Shown here: positions 8,842-63,857 of the stretch, one piece after another
Layout: the number at the start of each line of letters is the position of its first letter
Numbering within the stretch: position 1 is the first letter of the stretch
Assembly: GCA_035906055.1 (NCBI GenBank)
Contig: JAMIFV010000016.1
Location: forward strand, 2,210-66,209
From: Alphaproteobacteria bacterium
GTDB taxonomy: Bacteria > Pseudomonadota > Alphaproteobacteria > Rickettsiales > JABCZZ01
Length of the DNA stretch: 64,000 nt
Reading direction: 5' to 3'
Translations under genes and position numbers: made by a program
The notes under the pieces: generated by a model
What the model saw: the letters and a program-made list of their open reading frames with translations, nothing else
Told to the model about the DNA's origin: nothing
The model's database searches: none

Positions 8842-8969
8842 TAGCGCACTTTCCATTTAATCGTTCGCGTTGTTATCCATCGGTCTCGGTGTGCTCATGT
8901 ACTGCGCGTACACTGCGCGCACCTCGCCTCGGCTGCCTAGCGAACAATTAAAGCGAAAACGCTCTATAG
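8842..8969. mobile_element. MITE-like element, family A copy 1 (128 bp, about 30-bp imperfect terminal inverted repeats)
   Basis: Near-identical to 52411-52538: about ten substitutions and no indels by manual alignment. Left end is tagcgcactttccatttaatcgttcgc. Reverse complement of the right end is tagagcgttttcgctttaattgttcgc. Internal hairpin ggtgtgctcatgtac..gtacactgcgcgcacc. Confidence 0.85.
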
Positions 8970-9002
8970 TCATTTCCTGAATTGGCGCAGTGAATTGCGG
9001 GC

Positions 9003-9072
9003 TCAGCACTCAATAAACTGATGCTTTCTTTTCCTCTTCCGCTTTGCAGGAGGGGGAATGTATAAAATCAGA
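9003..9072. repeat. Degenerate type B palindromic element
   Basis: gcactcaataaactgatgctttcttttcctcttccgctttgcaggaggggga closely parallels the left half of the copies at 54155 and 63403. The ends are decayed. Confidence 0.6.
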
Positions 9073-31835: not shown

Positions 31836-34709
31836 TTAATGCGCGTCGCCCCAGTTGGTGGCGAAGCTGGCTTCCACCGTAAGCGGCACGCTCAGATGCG
31901 CGGCGCTTTCCATGATTTTCCTTACATTCGCGGCGACGCTTTCTGCCTGCGCTTCCGGCGCTTCGATAATAAGTTCGTCATGCACCTGCAGCAACATGCG
32001 CGGACCCTCTCCCCCCGCCCTCTCCCTGAAGGGAGAGGGAGTTCCCTCCACCTTTAGGGGGAGGGGTAGGGAGAGGGTCAACTCATGTTCCACTGCTATC
32101 ATCGCGCGTTTGATAATGTCAGCGGCAGTGCCCTGCAACGGCGCATTGATGGCGGCGCGTTCGGAGAAGTTACGCATATTGGGGTTTTTATCGTTGATGC
32201 CCGGCACATGGCAGCGTCGGCCAAATAGCGTTTCCACATAGCCGTGTTCATGTGCGAATTTCTTGGTGCGCTCCATGTAAGCCTGAATGCCGGGATACTG
32301 GGCAAAATACTTTTCAATATACGCCCCCGCCTCGCTGCGCGAGATGCCAAGGCGTGCGGCGAGCCCATGCGCGCTGATGCCGTAGATGATGCCGAAATTG
32401 ATGGTCTTGGCTTTGCGGCGCAGGTCGCCGCTCACCTCCTGCACAGGCACGCCGAACATCTGGCTGGCCGTTATGGCGTGGATGTCGTCGCCGTTCTTAA
32501 ACGCCTCTTTCAGCACGGGAATATCGGCGATATGCGCAAGCAGGCGCAACTCGATCTGTGAATAGTCGGCTGAAATAAGCAGGTTGCCTTGCTCCGCAAC
32601 AAAAGCGTGGCGGATCTTGCGGCCCTCTTCGGTGCGGATGGGGATATTCTGCAGGTTCGGCGAGTTGGAGGAAAGCCTGCCGGTGGAGGTGAGCGCGAGG
32701 GAATAGGACGTATGCACGCGGCGGGTTTGGGGATTGATTTCCTCCGCCAGCGTATCCGTATAGGTGCTTTTGAGTTTGGCAAGCTGGCGCCAGTCGAGAA
32801 TTTTCTGAGCGATAGTATGGCCGCTATCCGCCAGCTCTTCCAGCACTTCGGCACCCGTGCCATAAGCGCCGGTCTTGCCTTTTTTGCCGCCGGGAATGCT
32901 CATTTCGTCGAACAGCACTTCGCCAAGTTGTTTGGGCGAGGCGATGTTGAACGGATGCCCGGCCAGCGCGTGCACTTCCTTTTCCAGTTTCTCCATGCGC
33001 GTGGCAAAGTCGCCAGAGAGTTCAGCGAGTGCCGACTGGTTCACCTTGATGCCGCGCTCTTCCATCGCCACCACCACCGGCACCAGCGGGCGCTCGATGG
33101 TTTCATACAAGGTGAGCATCATCGCATCGGCCACTTGCGGCTTGAGAACCTGCCAGAGGCGGAACGTGACGTCGGCGTCCTCCGCCGCGTAGGCCAGCGC
33201 TTTGTCCAGCGCCACTTCAGCGAACGGAATTCGCGCTTTGCCGGTTCCGGTCACTTGGTCATAGCTGATGGTCTTAAGGCCCAGATAGCGCTCTGCCAGT
33301 TCGTCCATATTATGGTTATGGCTGCCAGCGGCGAGTATGTAGGACAACAGCATCGTGTCTTCCAGCGGGGTAACGCCGATGCCGTATTTCTTCAGTACCA
33401 GCATATCATATTTGATGTTCTGGCCGATCTTGAGCACGGATGCGTCTTCGAGCAGCGGCTTGAGCAGGGAAATAGCGCGTTCAAGCGGCAGCTGTCCCGG
33501 CAGGAGGGGATTGGGCTTTGGGGATTGGACTTTGGGGGAGAACAGGTCCCCGCTGTCCGGGATAGACCCTAATACCTGTTCCCCAATGCCTGAGGCCTTA
33601 TGTGCCACGGGCACATAGCACGCCTTGCCTGCGGTGCTGCATAGCGAGAAGCCCACTAACTCAGCTTGCATGGCATTGAGTGAAGTCGTTTCCGTATCGA
33701 ACGCCACAACGCCTTTTGCGCGGGCGTCATCTATCCAGCGCGCAAGCGCCGCTTCATCCTGCACCAGCTCATAATTTTTAGTCGTGTCATCCCGGCGCAG
33801 GCCTGTATCTCCGGGTGAGGCACCGGCCTTCGCCGGGGTAACGGTGTTTACAAGCCCGAACTTCTCGCTGAATTTGGCGATGAGGGACTTAAAACCCATC
33901 GCGGTGAGGAACGGCATGAGTTTTTCGCTCTCAGGATCGCAGCATGCGAAGGATGTAATCGGCACGGGCAGGGGAATATCGCTCTTCAAACCCACCAGTT
34001 CATAAGACAGCCGCGCTTTGTCGCTGTTCTGTTCGATCGTTTCACGGCGCTTGTTCTGTTTAATGTTGGCAGCATTGGCCAGCACGCCTTCCAGTGTGCC
34101 GAAATTGCCGATGAGCTCCGCCGCTGTCTTAGGGCCGATGCCGGGCACGCCCGGGATATTATCCGACGAATCGCCCATAAGCGATAATACATCGCGCACT
34201 TTTTCCGGCGGCACGCCGAATTTTTCCATCACCTGCTCAGGGCCGATGCTCTTCTGCTTCATGCCGTCATACATGCTGATGCCGGGGCCGATAAGCTGCA
34301 TGAGGTCTTTGTCGGAAGATACGATCACCACTTCCATGCCTTCGGCGCGAGCCGCAGTGGCGTAGGTGGCGATGAGGTCGTCCGCCTCGAATCCGGGCAT
34401 CTCGATGGCGGGCAGGTTAAGCGCCTGCGTGGCCTCGCGCACCAGCGGGAACTGGGGGATAAGGTCTTCCGGCGGCGGCGGGCGGTGGGCTTTGTATTCG
34501 GGATAAATATCGTTGCGGAAGGTCTTGCGGCCCGCGTCGAATATCACGGCGATATGGTCGGCCTTCGCGCCTTCCATAAGCTTGAGCATCATATTGATAA
34601 AGCCATAAACCGCGCCCACGGGAGTGCCTGCCGGGTTGGTGAGCGGCGGCAGGGAATGGTAGGCCCGGAAAATGAAGCCGGAACCGTCGATAAGATAGAG
34701 TTTTTTCAT
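31836..34709 (-). CDS. polA: DNA polymerase I
   Basis: 957 aa. 5'-nuclease N-terminus (LIDGSGFIFRAYH), 3'-5' exonuclease (FDTETTSL), polymerase motifs (DYSQIELRLLAH, RRKAKTINFGIIYG, QVHDELIIE). Contains two palindromic-repeat insertions. Confidence 0.95.
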   Translation of the reverse strand: MKKLYLIDGSGFIFRAYHSLPPLTNPAGTPVGAVYGFINMMLKLMEGAKADHIAVIFDAGRKTFRNDIYPEYKAHRPPPPEDLIPQFPLVREATQALNLPAIEMPGFEADDLIATYATAARAEGMEVVIVSSDKDLMQLIGPGISMYDGMKQKSIGPEQVMEKFGVPPEKVRDVLSLMGDSSDNIPGVPGIGPKTAAELIGNFGTLEGVLANAANIKQNKRRETIEQNSDKARLSYELVGLKSDIPLPVPITSFACCDPESEKLMPFLTAMGFKSLIAKFSEKFGLVNTVTPAKAGASPGDTGLRRDDTTKNYELVQDEAALARWIDDARAKGVVAFDTETTSLNAMQAELVGFSLCSTAGKACYVPVAHKASGIGEQVLGSIPDSGDLFSPKVQSPKPNPLLPGQLPLERAISLLKPLLEDASVLKIGQNIKYDMLVLKKYGIGVTPLEDTMLLSYILAAGSHNHNMDELAERYLGLKTISYDQVTGTGKARIPFAEVALDKALAYAAEDADVTFRLWQVLKPQVADAMMLTLYETIERPLVPVVVAMEERGIKVNQSALAELSGDFATRMEKLEKEVHALAGHPFNIASPKQLGEVLFDEMSIPGGKKGKTGAYGTGAEVLEELADSGHTIAQKILDWRQLAKLKSTYTDTLAEEINPQTRRVHTSYSLALTSTGRLSSNSPNLQNIPIRTEEGRKIRHAFVAEQGNLLISADYSQIELRLLAHIADIPVLKEAFKNGDDIHAITASQMFGVPVQEVSGDLRRKAKTINFGIIYGISAHGLAARLGISRSEAGAYIEKYFAQYPGIQAYMERTKKFAHEHGYVETLFGRRCHVPGINDKNPNMRNFSERAAINAPLQGTAADIIKRAMIAVEHELTLSLPLPLKVEGTPSPFRERAGGEGPRMLLQVHDELIIEAPEAQAESVAANVRKIMESAAHLSVPLTVEASFATNWGDAH
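32003..32079. repeat. Nested palindromic element inserted in frame in the polA polymerase domain
   Basis: gaccctctcccc / ccctctccctgaagggagaggg / ccctccacctttagggggagggg / gggagagggtc. Encodes about TLSLPLPLKVEGTPSPFRERAGGEGP. Boundaries are accurate to a few nt. Confidence 0.8.
33786..33846. repeat. TGTCATCC-type palindromic element in frame in the polA inter-domain linker
   Basis: tgtcatcccggcgcaggcc ... ggccttcgccggggtaac. Encodes VTPAKAGASPGDTGLRRDD on the polA strand. Confidence 0.75.
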
Positions 34710-34715
34710 GATATG

Positions 34716-34750
34716 TCACTCGTCGTCCTGCGGCTCGACCGCAGGATATC
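34716..34750. repeat. Palindromic-repeat arm flanking the GIY-YIG remnant (polA-proximal)
   Basis: tgtcactcgtcgtcctgcggctcgaccgcaggatatc contains the hairpin tcctgcgg/ccgcagga. Confidence 0.65.
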
Positions 34751-34766
34751 AGGTAACAGGAAAATA

Positions 34767-34901
34767 CTATGCAACAATGGCTTCATATAAATCATTCCAT
34801 TCCGGATTCATCGTATCTATCAACTCCAGCTTCCATTGTCGCTTCCAAAATTTTAAGCGCTTCTCACGCCGGATAGCGGATTCTGCCGTGCATAAGGCAT
34901 G
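34767..34901 (-). pseudogene. Truncated GIY-YIG nuclease family gene (C-terminal about 45 codons only)
   Basis: HALCTAESAIRREKRLKFWKRQWKLELIDTMNPEWNDLYE matches the C-terminal REK..K.W.R.WK..LIE..NP.W.DLY region of small GIY-YIG (COG2827-type) proteins. The GIY and YIG motifs are absent. The ORF N-terminus (SAVILRESAGS) is repeat-derived. Confidence 0.7.
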
Positions 34902-34931
34902 AGATCCTGCGCTTTCGCGCAGGATGACGGC
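34893..34931. repeat. Palindromic-repeat arm flanking the GIY-YIG remnant (distal)
   Basis: gatcctgcgctttcgcgcaggatgacgg. The ...aggatgacgg terminus matches the end of the 63280-63366 element. Confidence 0.65.
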
Positions 34932-34956
34932 TGAAAGAGTTTTAAACACTCAAATA

Positions 34957-34970
34957 CCATTTGCAAATGG
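34957..34970. promoter_or_regulatory. Perfect 14-bp palindrome upstream of the esterase-hemB operon
   Basis: ccatttgcaaatgg is self-complementary and lies 26 bp before the ATG at 34996. Confidence 0.2.
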
Positions 34971-34995
34971 ATAGTGCCCGCCGTAAACCCTGCTT

Positions 34996-36629
<1,634 letters not shown>

Positions 36630-45964: not shown

Positions 45965-46170
45965 TTGTCATGCCGTACAAGCGGTCAGTAGACCGCGCGA
46001 TACGGTATCTATATTTCATCCGCAAGGAAGAAACATGACGCGGCAGCAGGCGCGTCGTGTACGATACTTCTCACACAGCAGGTCTGCTGACCTGCTACTA
46101 CACGTTCCAGCATGTGAAAGATGGATTCCAGATAAGCTCGCCTGCTGACTCGCTTTCTGGAATGACAATT
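45963..46170. repeat. 208-bp element with 12-bp terminal inverted repeats filling a convergent intergenic gap
   Basis: Left end aattgtcatgcc; reverse complement of the right end aattgtcattcc. Internal hairpins gcggtc/gaccgc and gcaggt/acctgc. The ends abut both flanking stop codons. Confidence 0.6.
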
Positions 46171-52410: not shown

Positions 52411-52538
52411 TAGAGCATTTCCCATTTAATCGTTCGCGTCGTTATCCTTCGGTCTCGGTGTGCTCATGTACTACGTGTACACTCCGCGCACCTTGCCTCG
52501 GCTGCCTAGCGAACAATTAAAGCGAAAACGCTCTAGAG
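52411..52538. mobile_element. MITE-like element, family A copy 2
   Basis: Same 128-bp element as 8842-8969. It ends 14 nt before the rapZ ATG, just before the aaggag RBS. Confidence 0.85.
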
Positions 52539-52552
52539 TATTAAAGGAGTCT

Positions 52553-54145: not shown

Positions 54146-54154
54146 AAGCAAGGC

Positions 54155-54225
54155 TCAGGACTGATTAAACTCTTGCTTGCTTTTCCTCTCCCGCTTTGCA
54201 AGAGGAAAAGAGTCATGAGTCCTGA
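54155..54225. repeat. Type B palindromic element
   Basis: tcaggactgattaaactcttgcttgcttttcctctcccgctttgcaagaggaaaagagtcatgagtcctga. Contains the 10-bp stem cttttcctct/agaggaaaag, immediately after the HPr stop. Confidence 0.8.
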
Positions 54226-60254: not shown

Positions 60255-60276
60255 GTGATTCTCCTTATGTATAAAC

Positions 60277-60336
60277 TGTCATTCCCCGAATTTTGTATAG
60301 CTAAATTATAGGGGAATCCACCTTGCTGCAAGGTGG
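60277..60336. repeat. TGTCATTCC-type palindromic repeat upstream of bcp
   Basis: tgtcattcccc...ggggaatcc followed by the ccacctt/gctgc/aaggtgg hairpin. Confidence 0.55.
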
Positions 60337-60398
60337 TTCGCCCTAGAATTGCTGGCGCAATTCAGGCGATGACGAAAGCATGCAAGACGATAACATGG

Positions 60399-62528: not shown

Positions 62529-63290
62529 ATGGAAAAGCCTTCGATTCTTAAGACCGCCGATGGCGGCAGCATCGCCTACCACCGGCTTGCCGGGGTATCT
62601 CCGGGGATAATTTTTCTCGGTGGCTTCCGTTCCGACATGACCGGGGTAAAGGCGACCGCGCTTGAAGGATTCTGCAAGGAGCGGGGGCAGGCGTTCATCC
62701 GGTTCGATTATCGCGGGCATGGCCAGTCCTCCGGTAAATTCGGGGATTGCACGCTCAGCACGTGGCTGGAAGACGCTTTGCTGGTGCTCACCAAGCTCGC
62801 CAAAGGGCCGCAGATAATAGTTGGCTCGTCCATGGGCGGGTGGCTTTCATTGTTGCTGGCGATACAGAAACCGCGCCGTATCGAAGGCATTATCGGCATA
62901 GCGGCAGCACCCGACTTCACCGAGCACCTCATCTGGGATAAGCTCACCGATAAGCAGAAGACGCAGTTAAAAGAGGATGGCAAGATTCTGGTGCCGTCCG
63001 ATTATGGTGATCCTTACCCCATTACCGCTGACCTGATATTGGATGGTCGCAATCATCTGATATTACATAGGGATATTCCCGTATATTGCCCCATACGTCT
63101 GCTGCACGGCATGAAAGACGACGACGTGCCGTGGGAGGTTTCGATGGCCGTAAACGAGAAGGTGGGCAGCAGCGACGTGAAAACCATCCTCATCGAAAAC
63201 GGCAATCACCGCCTGAGCGAGCCGGACGACATTAAAAAACTGCTGAGTGTTACGGCCAAGCTGCTGGGTTCTATTGAGCCGTCATCCTGA
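62529..63290 (+). CDS. Alpha/beta hydrolase
   Basis: FLGGFRSDM, GSSMGGW nucleophile elbow and LLHGMKDDDVPW. The ATG at 62529 lies within a track ORF that opens with TTG at 62520. The last codons and the stop come from a palindromic repeat. Confidence 0.75.
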   Translation: MEKPSILKTADGGSIAYHRLAGVSPGIIFLGGFRSDMTGVKATALEGFCKERGQAFIRFDYRGHGQSSGKFGDCTLSTWLEDALLVLTKLAKGPQIIVGSSMGGWLSLLLAIQKPRRIEGIIGIAAAPDFTEHLIWDKLTDKQKTQLKEDGKILVPSDYGDPYPITADLILDGRNHLILHRDIPVYCPIRLLHGMKDDDVPWEVSMAVNEKVGSSDVKTILIENGNHRLSEPDDIKKLLSVTAKLLGSIEPSS

Positions 63291-63366
63291 GCGCAACGAA
63301 GGATCCTCTTGCTTTGGTATAGATAGCAAGTAGATCCTTCGTCGCTATGCTCCTCAGGATGACGGT
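63280..63366. repeat. CCGTCATCCTGAGCG-type long palindromic element
   Basis: ccgtcatcctgagcgcaacgaaggatc ... gatccttcgtcgctatgctcctcaggatgacgg, a near-perfect long hairpin. Confidence 0.85.
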
Positions 63367-63402
63367 TCTGCCAAAAACGACCCCGTGACAAGTCTAGGCT
63401 AA

Positions 63403-63608
63403 GGACTCATTAAATTATTGCTTTCTTTTCCTCTCCCTTTGAGGGAGAGGACGCGTTTGCCTTGGGTTTAGCTTTAGCTAAGCCCTTAGGCAAACCGAGG
63501 TGAGGGGGCATTTACATTCACCCTCACCCAGCTTCGGCTAAGCTGCTGCGCTGCAAAGCCTGCGCAACCCTCTCCCGCTTTGCAGGAGAGGGGATTTATG
63601 AGTCCTGA
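63403..63608. repeat. Composite type B element: four consecutive hairpins bracketed by GGACTCAT/ATGAGTCC
   Basis: The four hairpins are cctctccctttgagggagagg, gtttgccttgg..cccttaggcaaac, ggtgagggggcatttacattcaccctcacc and ccctctcccgctttgcaggagagggg. Confidence 0.8.
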
Positions 63609-63857
63609 CCCTAGGGCTGACAAGAGAAGTTTATTTCTTCTACCCATCAACTGATTTTTCGGCAGCGGGCGTTGGTTGCAAGTCGTTATGGGATTTTACA
63701 TCGTTGCCGCCGGTGACAGGTTCCGCAAGCGCTTTGAAGTCTCTGACATAGAAATTTTTAATACCGCTCGCCGCTTAAGGTTTTGTGACGACGTTGTTCC
63801 TTGACTTATAGCTGAAATAGCTGTAACATATGTTATGTAATTAAATTAAGGAATAAC

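Follow-up and report, generated by a model that had tools for sequence, protein, structure and literature searches.

In the window, by which we mean the whole 64,000-nucleotide (nt) stretch of contig JAMIFV010000016.1 analysed here (assembly GCA_035906055.1), polA and a gene for an Abhydrolase_2 esterase point away from each other, and the 286-nt spacer between these divergent genes holds the end of a gene for a small GIY-YIG nuclease with a hairpin on either side of it. We refer to the gene as ssn, a single-domain GIY-YIG nuclease of single-stranded DNA (ssDNA), and to the gene together with its two hairpins as the Ssn cassette. The host is an uncultured alphaproteobacterium, to which the best named relatives by hemB are about 70% identical, and it is in this group that the short hairpins called CGTC REPs are commonest. 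When the spacer is read along the minus strand, a C and the tag CGTC are followed by a hairpin (the distal or 5' arm) and another C, and then come a tail of 15 nt, an open frame that closes with ...TAESAIRREKRLKFWKRQWKLELIDTMNPEWNDLYEAIVA and the stop codon TAG (34769-34767), 19 nt, a second hairpin (the proximal or 3' arm), 11 nt, and the ATG of polA (Table 1).

The minus-strand open reading frame (ORF) at 34949-34767 encodes 60 amino acids (aa) and has the C-terminal end ...AESAIRREKRLKFWKRQWKLELIDTMNPEWNDLYEAIVA. A database search with this ORF returned 28 proteins, with which only the last ~40 residues aligned, at up to 80% identity and a database-wide E of 1e-13. Except for two partial sequences of 49 and 72 aa, these homologues are 88-104 aa long (most of them 94-104) and have PF01541 GIY-YIG as their single domain, on which the intact proteins score 47-55 bits; the nearest solved structures to the intact homologues are the single-domain UPF0213 proteins 1zg2 and 1ywl. 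When all 28 were searched by tblastn against the whole window, the sole significant match was 34892-34770 on the minus strand, which is 80% identical to residues 57-97 of the protein P0001 (E 4e-19), and no trace of P0001 residues 1-56 was found anywhere in the 64 kb. The initial annotation had held that only the C-terminal region of a small GIY-YIG nuclease survives here, and this is what the search shows: about 41 residues at the end are left and the first 56 are gone. With them went both tyrosines (those of GIY and of YIG), the Arg and the His, and of the catalytic residues the metal-binding Glu, in the C-terminal REK, is kept. The 60-aa ORF gave no useful match in Pfam or NCBIfam, and the Pfam GIY-YIG domain was undetected in the remnant because the GIY, YIG, Arg and His motifs, which make up the core of the domain, are missing. 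The window copy of ssn is therefore a pseudogene of the nuclease family, which would make no nuclease. The same structure is present, identical, in an independent assembly (L008), which rules out an assembly artefact.

The distal arm reads CGTC-ATCCTGCGC-GAAA-GCGCAGGAT-C on the minus strand (34929-34904), its tag being the complement of 34926-34929 with a C before it at 34930. Its stem, ATCCTGCGC/GCGCAGGAT at 34925-34917 and 34912-34904, is a perfect 9 bp with the 4-nt loop GAAA, the C after the palindrome is kept (34903), and when folded as ssDNA the arm has a free energy of -11.2 kcal/mol (z -3.7 against shuffles). The proximal arm reads CGTC-GTCCTGCGG-CTCGA-CCGCAGGAT-A on the plus strand (34721-34747, tag at 34721-34724, loop CTCGA), which on the minus strand is ATCCTGCGG-TCGAG-CCGCAGGAC followed by GACG (34747-34721); as ssDNA it folds with 8 bp at -10.1 kcal/mol (z -3.7). 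Each arm is thus a hairpin complementary to itself; one is an inverted copy of the other, and the CGTC tags of both point outward. Thus, the earlier statement that the remnant is bracketed by repeat arms holds, while the further statement that these are the two halves of one palindrome does not. Three exact copies of the 10-mer CGTCATCCTG lie in the window (34920-34929 on the minus strand, 63280 on the plus strand and 63355 on the minus strand) against 0.09 expected, and three or more copies were seen in none of 100 shuffles. A scan of 34600-35100 for promoters and terminators gave nothing above chance and there is no T-run at either arm; a Rho-independent terminator was considered and rejected. 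Nor was there a match in Rfam.

Nuclease genes and hairpins in other genomes

Chenal et al. (Nat Commun 2025) reported that the hairpin NTS (CGTCATTCCCGCGMAVGCGGGAATCYRG) and the related SRM flank the 94-aa GIY-YIG gene ssnA across bacteria, an SRM being nearby in 71% of ssnA homologues and on both sides in 42% (PMC11893778). SsnA and three homologues (N. meningitidis, N. elongata, N. wadsworthii, Wolbachia) bind the hairpin as ssDNA only and cut a few nt 5' of it, and they are inactive on double-stranded DNA (dsDNA); binding to the NTS depends above all on the C that follows the stem, and cleavage above all on the three bases that precede it (PMC11893778). The supposition of the initial annotation that the repeats are targets of the nuclease agrees with this biochemistry of the homologues, in which Ssn cuts ssDNA next to a CGTC-tagged hairpin (PMC11893778).

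When the locus of the closest intact homologue, P0001, was examined (contig L001), it was found that its 294-bp gene lies between CCGTCATCCTGCGGCTTGACCGCAGGATCCAGC, which ends 2 nt before the ATG, and GCTGGATCCTGCGGTCAAGCAGCAGGATGACGG, which begins right after the TAG stop. These arms are 33 nt long, have the same stem ATCCTGCGG and the same outward geometry as those in the window, and both fit the published SRM pattern. The same layout of hairpin, gene and hairpin is present in L177, and in L007, which carries the gene of P0002, there are three tagged hairpins around the gene, including a hairpin dimer upstream. Compared to the intact arms of L001 and L177, the proximal arm of the window has two changes: its first stem base is G for A (34725), so that it reads CGTCGT in place of CGTCAT, and the base after the palindrome is A and not C (34748). 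Both positions are critical in the N. meningitidis NTS (PMC11893778). Judged by that hairpin, the distal arm would still be a perfect substrate-like hairpin and the proximal arm would lack two critical positions; the window arms could be of consequence only with a working ssn at some other place in the genome.

The initial annotation had proposed to ask whether GIY-YIG genes in the complete genome and in relatives are flanked by these repeats. Homologues were scanned with one genome per species, which gave 80 loci in very diverse phyla, and a hairpin tagged with CGTC or TGTC lies within 150 nt of the gene in 68 of them and on both sides in 41. Tagged hairpins number 5.9 per kb near the gene and 0.46 per kb farther out at the same loci, a 13-fold enrichment, and the tags point outward rather than inward by 47 to 18 upstream and by 54 to 22 downstream. 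The SRM pattern is matched by hairpins at 50 of the 80 loci, and the flanking sequence CGTCATTCCCGCGAAGGCGGGAATCCAG of L060 fits the NTS definition exactly. Together, the 135 hairpins that adjoin the ssn homologues align to the consensus nnnCGTCATTCCCGCGnAnGCGGGAATCCAG / CGTCATTCCCGCGnAnGCGGGAATCCAG, which equals the Neisseria NTS. A covariance model was built from these 135 hairpins; its pairing statistics are circular, as the hairpins had been picked for pairing, and we draw no evidence of structure from them. Among 181 fetched loci, the stem ATCCTGCGS was confined to the window strain and to the neighbourhood of P0001-type genes, and therefore the arm sequence tracks the protein subfamily. 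The link between a GIY-YIG family and the CCGTCATCCTG... repeats, which had been drawn from this one junction, is thus borne out by the same-stem arms at the closest intact homologue and by the 68 tagged loci.

Homologues that are 57-71% identical to P0001 (L009-L088) come from Deltaproteobacteria, Parcubacteria, Saccharibacteria, Bipolaricaulota and Melainabacteria, and further from Chlorobi, Planctomycetes, Dehalococcoidia, Nitrospirae and Acidobacteria. So wide a spread of so small a protein points to frequent horizontal transfer.

Occupied and empty sites and the origin of the cassette

Close relatives of the window were retrieved by an exact-cluster look-up of the esterase. In five contigs that represent three lineages (L169/L170, L171 and L172/L173), whose flanking genes are 81-87% identical in nt to those of the window, polA and the esterase gene are separated by a spacer of only 63 nt, CATGGGGGCATAGTAAGAGTCTAAATACCATTTGCAAATGG..., which is near-invariant among the five and aligns to both sides of the window insert. 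In the outgroup L176, which is more distant and has kept the synteny, the spacer is 110 nt long, begins with CATGGGCGCAGTGTAGG like the empty sites and has no hairpin. From the 63-nt empty spacers and the similar start of the outgroup spacer it follows that the empty state is ancestral and that the cassette is a derived insertion. The 11 nt GATATGTCACT next to polA stand in place of GGGGGCA of the empty sites and are similar in form to TGTTTGCCACT of another relative, L174; they probably arrived together with the insertion. A metagenome scan with the esterase for orthologous spacers brought only relatives of at most 61% identity, none of them with polA adjacent.

L174 is the sister of the empty L171 (92% nt identity) and has a spacer of 216 nt (186-404) that holds, beside polA, a truncated copy of the proximal arm of the window, CACTCGTCGTCATGCGGCTTGACCGC, then unrelated sequence and a long-loop dimer of the type at 63280-63366. 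An ssn remnant was searched for in this spacer and none was found. With L174 occupied and its sister L171 empty, the site was the scene of more than one insertion or remodelling. The states of the window and of L174 could go back either to one insertion that was spread by recombination or to two insertions at one site. A separate feature of the polA-esterase spacer, in the window at 34958-34990, is the perfect 14-nt palindrome CCATTTGCAAATGG with the following GATAGTGCCCGCCGTAAACC, which is near-invariant in all the relatives across lineages with 15-19% difference in the adjacent coding DNA; it resembles a conserved operator or promoter element serving the divergent genes.

A second insertion, this one intact, is that of the P0001 cassette between pyrG and kdsA in L001 and L177 (the L177 kdsA protein is 92% identical). 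In L178/L179 (83%) and in the outgroup L180/L181 (78%) pyrG and kdsA overlap (TAATG or ATGA) and leave no intergenic room, and the cassette is likewise an insertion, here into an overlapping gene junction. Between L001 and L177 the ORF has 78.6% nt identity, with 37 synonymous and 16 non-synonymous codon differences, and the arms (two of 33 nt) have 1 difference in 66 positions, which means that the cassette was inherited vertically after insertion, with constraint on the protein and a stronger one on the arms. In both contigs (L001 2968-2998, L177 2135-2165) the pyrG frame enters the upstream hairpin and ends at a TGA inside its loop CTTGA, which means that an essential gene takes its final residues and its stop codon from the cassette. 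These two comparisons of occupied with empty sites, each with an outgroup, support the selfish or mobile character that the initial annotation had proposed for the element, and they are comparative evidence that the cassette moves as a unit.

The most probable explanation of the window locus, to which we give a probability of about 0.88, is that 34710-34950 is the decayed remnant of an Ssn cassette. The intact cassette is of ~365 bp, with the ssn gene between two inverted, cognate CGTC-tagged hairpins (SRM/NTS or 'CGTC REP') whose tags point outward, and it entered the otherwise conserved 63-nt spacer in the lineage of the window. A later loss of ~170-210 bp removed the first 56 codons and with them all catalytic motifs except the C-terminal Glu. 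The 15-nt tail TCATGCCTTATGCAC resembles TCATGCTAATATGCAC, which follows the outer hairpin of the L007 dimer, at 13 of 16 positions, and the two tails may be homologous. The ancestor could then have been like L007, in the order outer hairpin, tail, inner hairpin and gene, and the truncation of the 5' end would most simply be one deletion of ~200 bp; the deletion breakpoint lies at the 3' end of the tail, at about 34886-34892. By homology, the ~95-aa monomer of the intact relatives would bind the hairpin only in ssDNA, and the intact protein would recognise the stem by its sequence, together with the CGTC tag on its 5' side and the C on its 3' side, and would then cut a few nt 5' of the tag.

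Several results weigh against this explanation. No target-site duplication is discernible at the polA-esterase insert or at pyrG/kdsA, the divergence of the flanks limiting the view, and at the former site ~7 nt of the ancestral spacer were replaced with no clean junction. The strict SRM pattern, HGTCWYN(0-2)YYVSBRHN(0-5)WNVSBRGN(0-2)RNCYNB, has 0 matches in the window (shuffle mean 0.35): the distal arm, whose stem is of 9 bp and whose loop is of 4 nt, for that reason misses it at a single position of the stem, and the proximal arm misses it at two positions, the W that follows the tag and the C that follows the stem. As the pattern is a hand-made search string, this lowers the weight of membership without ruling membership out. 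The covariance model gives the distal arm 12.6 bits, the third-best score in the window; with an E of 0.6 across all 64 kb this is short of significance, and a blind search would not call the arm by that score. Membership in Ssn (cd10448, GIY-YIG_unchar_3) is putative, in that it rests on size, domain, NTS-like flanking repeats and the published description. Finally, the role published for Ssn in Neisseria is the restriction of transforming ssDNA (PMC11893778), and catalysis of insertion by Ssn itself would be conjecture.

What moves the cassette is a matter apart from what it is. Tentatively, and with somewhat less than an even chance in our estimate, Ssn cassettes may be autonomous mobile elements, among the smallest known, and the dispersed CGTC hairpin dimers may be derivatives like miniature inverted-repeat transposable elements (MITEs) that the nuclease mobilises in trans. 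The dimers at 63280-63366 and 60274-60375, the in-frame dimer in polA and the L174 dimer would then be non-autonomous derivatives, and the window copy, with its gene truncated and both ends kept, would be an intermediate between the autonomous unit and the hairpin dimer. It is rather unlikely, as we see it, that the cassette is instead passive cargo, the hairpins being host REP-type elements (stabilisers of transcripts, terminators or recombination sites), ssn being a domesticated regulator of transformation, and presence or absence at polA-esterase being due to illegitimate or homologous recombination after DNA uptake and not to self-mobility. This proposal accords with the published role of Ssn in Neisseria, the restriction of transforming ssDNA and modulation of natural transformation (PMC11893778), with the vertical inheritance under purifying selection in L001 and L177, as in domesticated RAYT/REPIN, and with the want of a target-site duplication, and the occupied L174 beside its empty sister L171 could reflect allele exchange. 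It has to face, however, two independent derived insertions of the full three-part unit with no spare intergenic DNA, one of them in the overlapping pyrG/kdsA junction, and homologues that are 60-70% identical across very distant phyla, both of which are easier to explain by a unit that moves as such. Passive cargo concerns the mover and not the identity of the feature, and it is compatible with the identification as an Ssn cassette.

The initial annotation had offered as an alternative that a GIY-YIG gene resident in the host was decapitated through insertion of a mobile palindromic repeat, the arms having nothing to do with the biology of the gene. Tagged dimers do enter genes in this genome, as in polA, and the tail after the distal hairpin resembles that of a gene-free dimer in L007, so that a dimer-type repeat may have shared in the truncation. 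However, the relatives and the outgroup have no GIY-YIG gene at the site, just a spacer of 63-110 nt; the gene was never resident, and gene and arms therefore arrived together. At the intact homologues the arms are the same and likewise face outward, which means that the arms belong to the gene, and insertion of a dimer would have left a second hairpin between tail and remnant, which is absent, so that a deletion is needed anyway. We regard decapitation as very improbable. Least credible of all is the remnant of a free-standing GIY-YIG homing endonuclease (like I-TevI or Seg) with the repeats as its duplicated or disrupted recognition site, for which the GIY-YIG fold, small size, intergenic place and patchy distribution would speak, but the homologues are of 94-104 aa with one PF01541 domain and no DNA-binding domain, the solved structures nearest to them are of single-domain UPF0213 proteins, the flanks are formed by structured hairpins with further copies throughout the genome and not by one unique target, and the family has been characterised as ssDNA-specific and inactive on dsDNA (PMC11893778).

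Other repeats of the window

The element at 63280-63366, which the initial annotation took to be an intact form of the arms, shares with them the head (C)CGTCATCCTG (CCGTCATCCTG) and the closing AGGATC only. Its arms do not fold alone (-1.6 and -2.7 kcal/mol), and the whole 93-nt unit folds at -31.7 kcal/mol with a z of -9.7. It therefore belongs to a related long-loop subfamily and is not the same repeat as the cassette arms; the resemblance stands at the level of a superfamily and goes no further. Two further elements in Table 1, 60274-60375 and 46119-46168, have TGTC/CGTC tags, canonical heads and tails (TGTCATTCCCC...GGGGAATCCACC and TGTCATTCCAG...CTGGAATCCATC) and loops of 23-25 nt.

The degenerate dimer within polA reads CCGTT-ACCCCGGC-GAAG-GCCGGTGC-CTCA ... 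TGTC-ATCCCGGC-GCAG-GCCTGTAT, the latter part on the other strand, and contributes ...TPAKAGASPGDTGLRRDD... to the linker that joins the 5'-3' exonuclease domain to the 3'-5' exonuclease domain. At this position the polA of L169 and L171 has an unrelated Ala/Ser/Pro-rich linker of like length. The dimer agrees with the remark of Di Nocera and coworkers that REPs occur inside replication and repair genes (PMC3733652). A different palindromic repeat, CCCTCTCC...GGGAGAGGG (I4), makes a 21-residue in-frame insertion, TLSLPLPLKVEGTPSPFRERAGGEGP, in the polymerase domain of the same gene (~31990-32090 on the minus strand), which is missing from the L169 polA; here an essential gene has taken up a repeat within its frame in the manner of an RPE. 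Another repeat family, with no relation to the tagged one, consists of CCTCTCCCGCTTTGCAGGAGAGG hairpins that share a conserved leader of ~25 nt, AGGCTCAGGACTNATTAAA...; two stretches of 129 nt in it are 92% identical to each other, and its copy at 63427-63453 on the minus strand happens to carry a CGTC tag.

Table 1. Features of the polA-esterase spacer, its neighbouring genes and the repeats of the window
Feature	Position	Strand	Basis or remark
DNA in the window that is absent from the 63-nt spacer of relatives	34710-34952		alignment, spacer listing, outgroup L176; junctions approximate
11 nt GATATGTCACT between polA start codon and proximal tag	34710-34720	plus	spacer comparison
Proximal (3') arm, inverted orientation	34721-34748	plus	fold; comparison with L001 and L177 arms
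ssn (single-domain GIY-YIG ssDNA nuclease) gene remnant	34767-34892	minus	codons for P0001 residues 57-97 and TAG
Tail after distal hairpin, 15 nt TCATGCCTTATGCAC	34888-34902	minus	comparison with L007
Distal (5') arm, SRM / CGTC-tagged REP hairpin	34904-34930	minus	tag, stem, fold, covariance score
polA	31836-34709	minus	start codon 34707-34709 (CAT on plus)
Abhydrolase_2 esterase	34996-35640	plus	
Hairpin dimer, outward CGTC tags, long-loop subfamily	63280-63366		inverted repeats I5 and I16; fold; 12.0 bits with covariance model
Outward-tagged long-loop dimer between two genes	60274-60375		best covariance-model match in window, 21.4 bits
Tagged monomer	46119-46168		
Degenerate tagged-hairpin dimer, in-frame in polA, tags outward	~33785-33843	minus	
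CCTCTCCCGCTTTGCAGGAGAGG repeat family (D1-D3)	1032-1062, 8842-9063, 52411-52539, 54151-54215, 63396-63614		

Comparison with known systems

Like insertion sequences and MITEs, the cassette has terminal inverted repeats around one small ORF, dimers of its ends without the gene (63280-63366, 60274-60375), and occupied as well as empty sites. Unlike them it has no recognised transposase domain and no target-site duplication was seen, and in all it is of ~365 bp. The REPtrons, in which a RAYT gene goes with GTAG REPs or REPINs, are alike in that a single-copy gene lies between inverted copies of a hairpin dispersed in the genome, that the protein reads the hairpin in ssDNA, and that inheritance is vertical with gene and repeats both constrained. 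The analogy is one of layout only, as the protein here is a hydrolytic GIY-YIG nuclease and not a Y1 HUH tyrosine transposase of the IS200/IS605 type and the tag is CGTC and not GTAG; a RAYT/REPtron was rejected because of the protein and the tag.

The CGTC-tagged REPs were defined by Di Nocera, De Gregorio and Rocco (BMC Genomics 2013) by an unpaired CGTC or TGTC tag, 8-9 bp stems that start with AT, loops of 4-5 nt and a CCA tail (PMC3733652). They are found mostly in alpha-proteobacteria, often as dimers and sometimes within replication or repair genes, and the authors concluded that they 'apparently lack a dedicated transposase' (PMC3733652). In the window the distal arm (CGTC, ATCCTGCGC of 9 bp, GAAA) and the proximal arm (CGTC, (G)TCCTGCGG of 8 bp plus a G.T pair, CTCGA) match this definition in tag, stem and loop, and they share with the CGTC REPs the inverted dimers, the mostly alpha-proteobacterial hosts and the occurrence in polA. 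They differ in their tails, which are CTCA in the distal and ATCA in the proximal arm instead of CCA, whereas the L001 arms and the 135 hairpins have CCAG. Unlike in the 2013 description, the hairpins in the window flank a dedicated nuclease gene, as they do in the 2025 paper. If Ssn cassettes are mobile in the way we tentatively suggest, they would provide the 'missing transposase' of the CGTC REPs, an open question of 2013, and the result bears on what spreads these repeats in alpha-proteobacteria, Rickettsia, Wolbachia and Neisseria.

The closest system is that of SsnA (NMB0047 of N. meningitidis) and the NTS. The likeness extends to a single-domain GIY-YIG protein of ~94-100 aa and to inverted hairpins of 28-33 nt that have a 5' CGTC tag and a stem which starts with AT, closes a loop of 4-5 nt and is followed by a C, and inverted hairpins on both sides with outward tags were found at the window, in L001 and L177 and at most of the 80 loci. 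What sets the window copy apart is that it is without residues 1-56, that the stem of its arms is ATCCTGCGS and not ATTCCCGC, that the tails are CTCA/ATCA and not CCAG, and that its host is an uncultured alphaproteobacterium. The association of nuclease and hairpin is real and was already published in 2025 (PMC11893778), and a search of the literature brought no other description of it, earlier or later, beyond that paper and the 2013 one. The window locus is a relic of this known system and as a relic teaches little on function. What is new is a decayed example in this host, the specificity pair of the ATCCTGCGG hairpin and the P0001-type protein, which is a candidate new pair for ssDNA-cutting tools, and the comparative evidence of insertion as a unit. 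Chenal et al. likened NTS-ssnA-NTS to an insertion sequence and raised domestication and insertion sequence-like mobility as a hypothesis only (PMC11893778), whereas the present comparison documents the unit at two conserved and unrelated places, and at each of them as a derived insertion. The synonymous sites of ssn have diverged far more than the arms, and the stem sequence follows the protein subfamily. All this is what one would expect of a self-contained unit that is mobile or has been domesticated from a mobile one.

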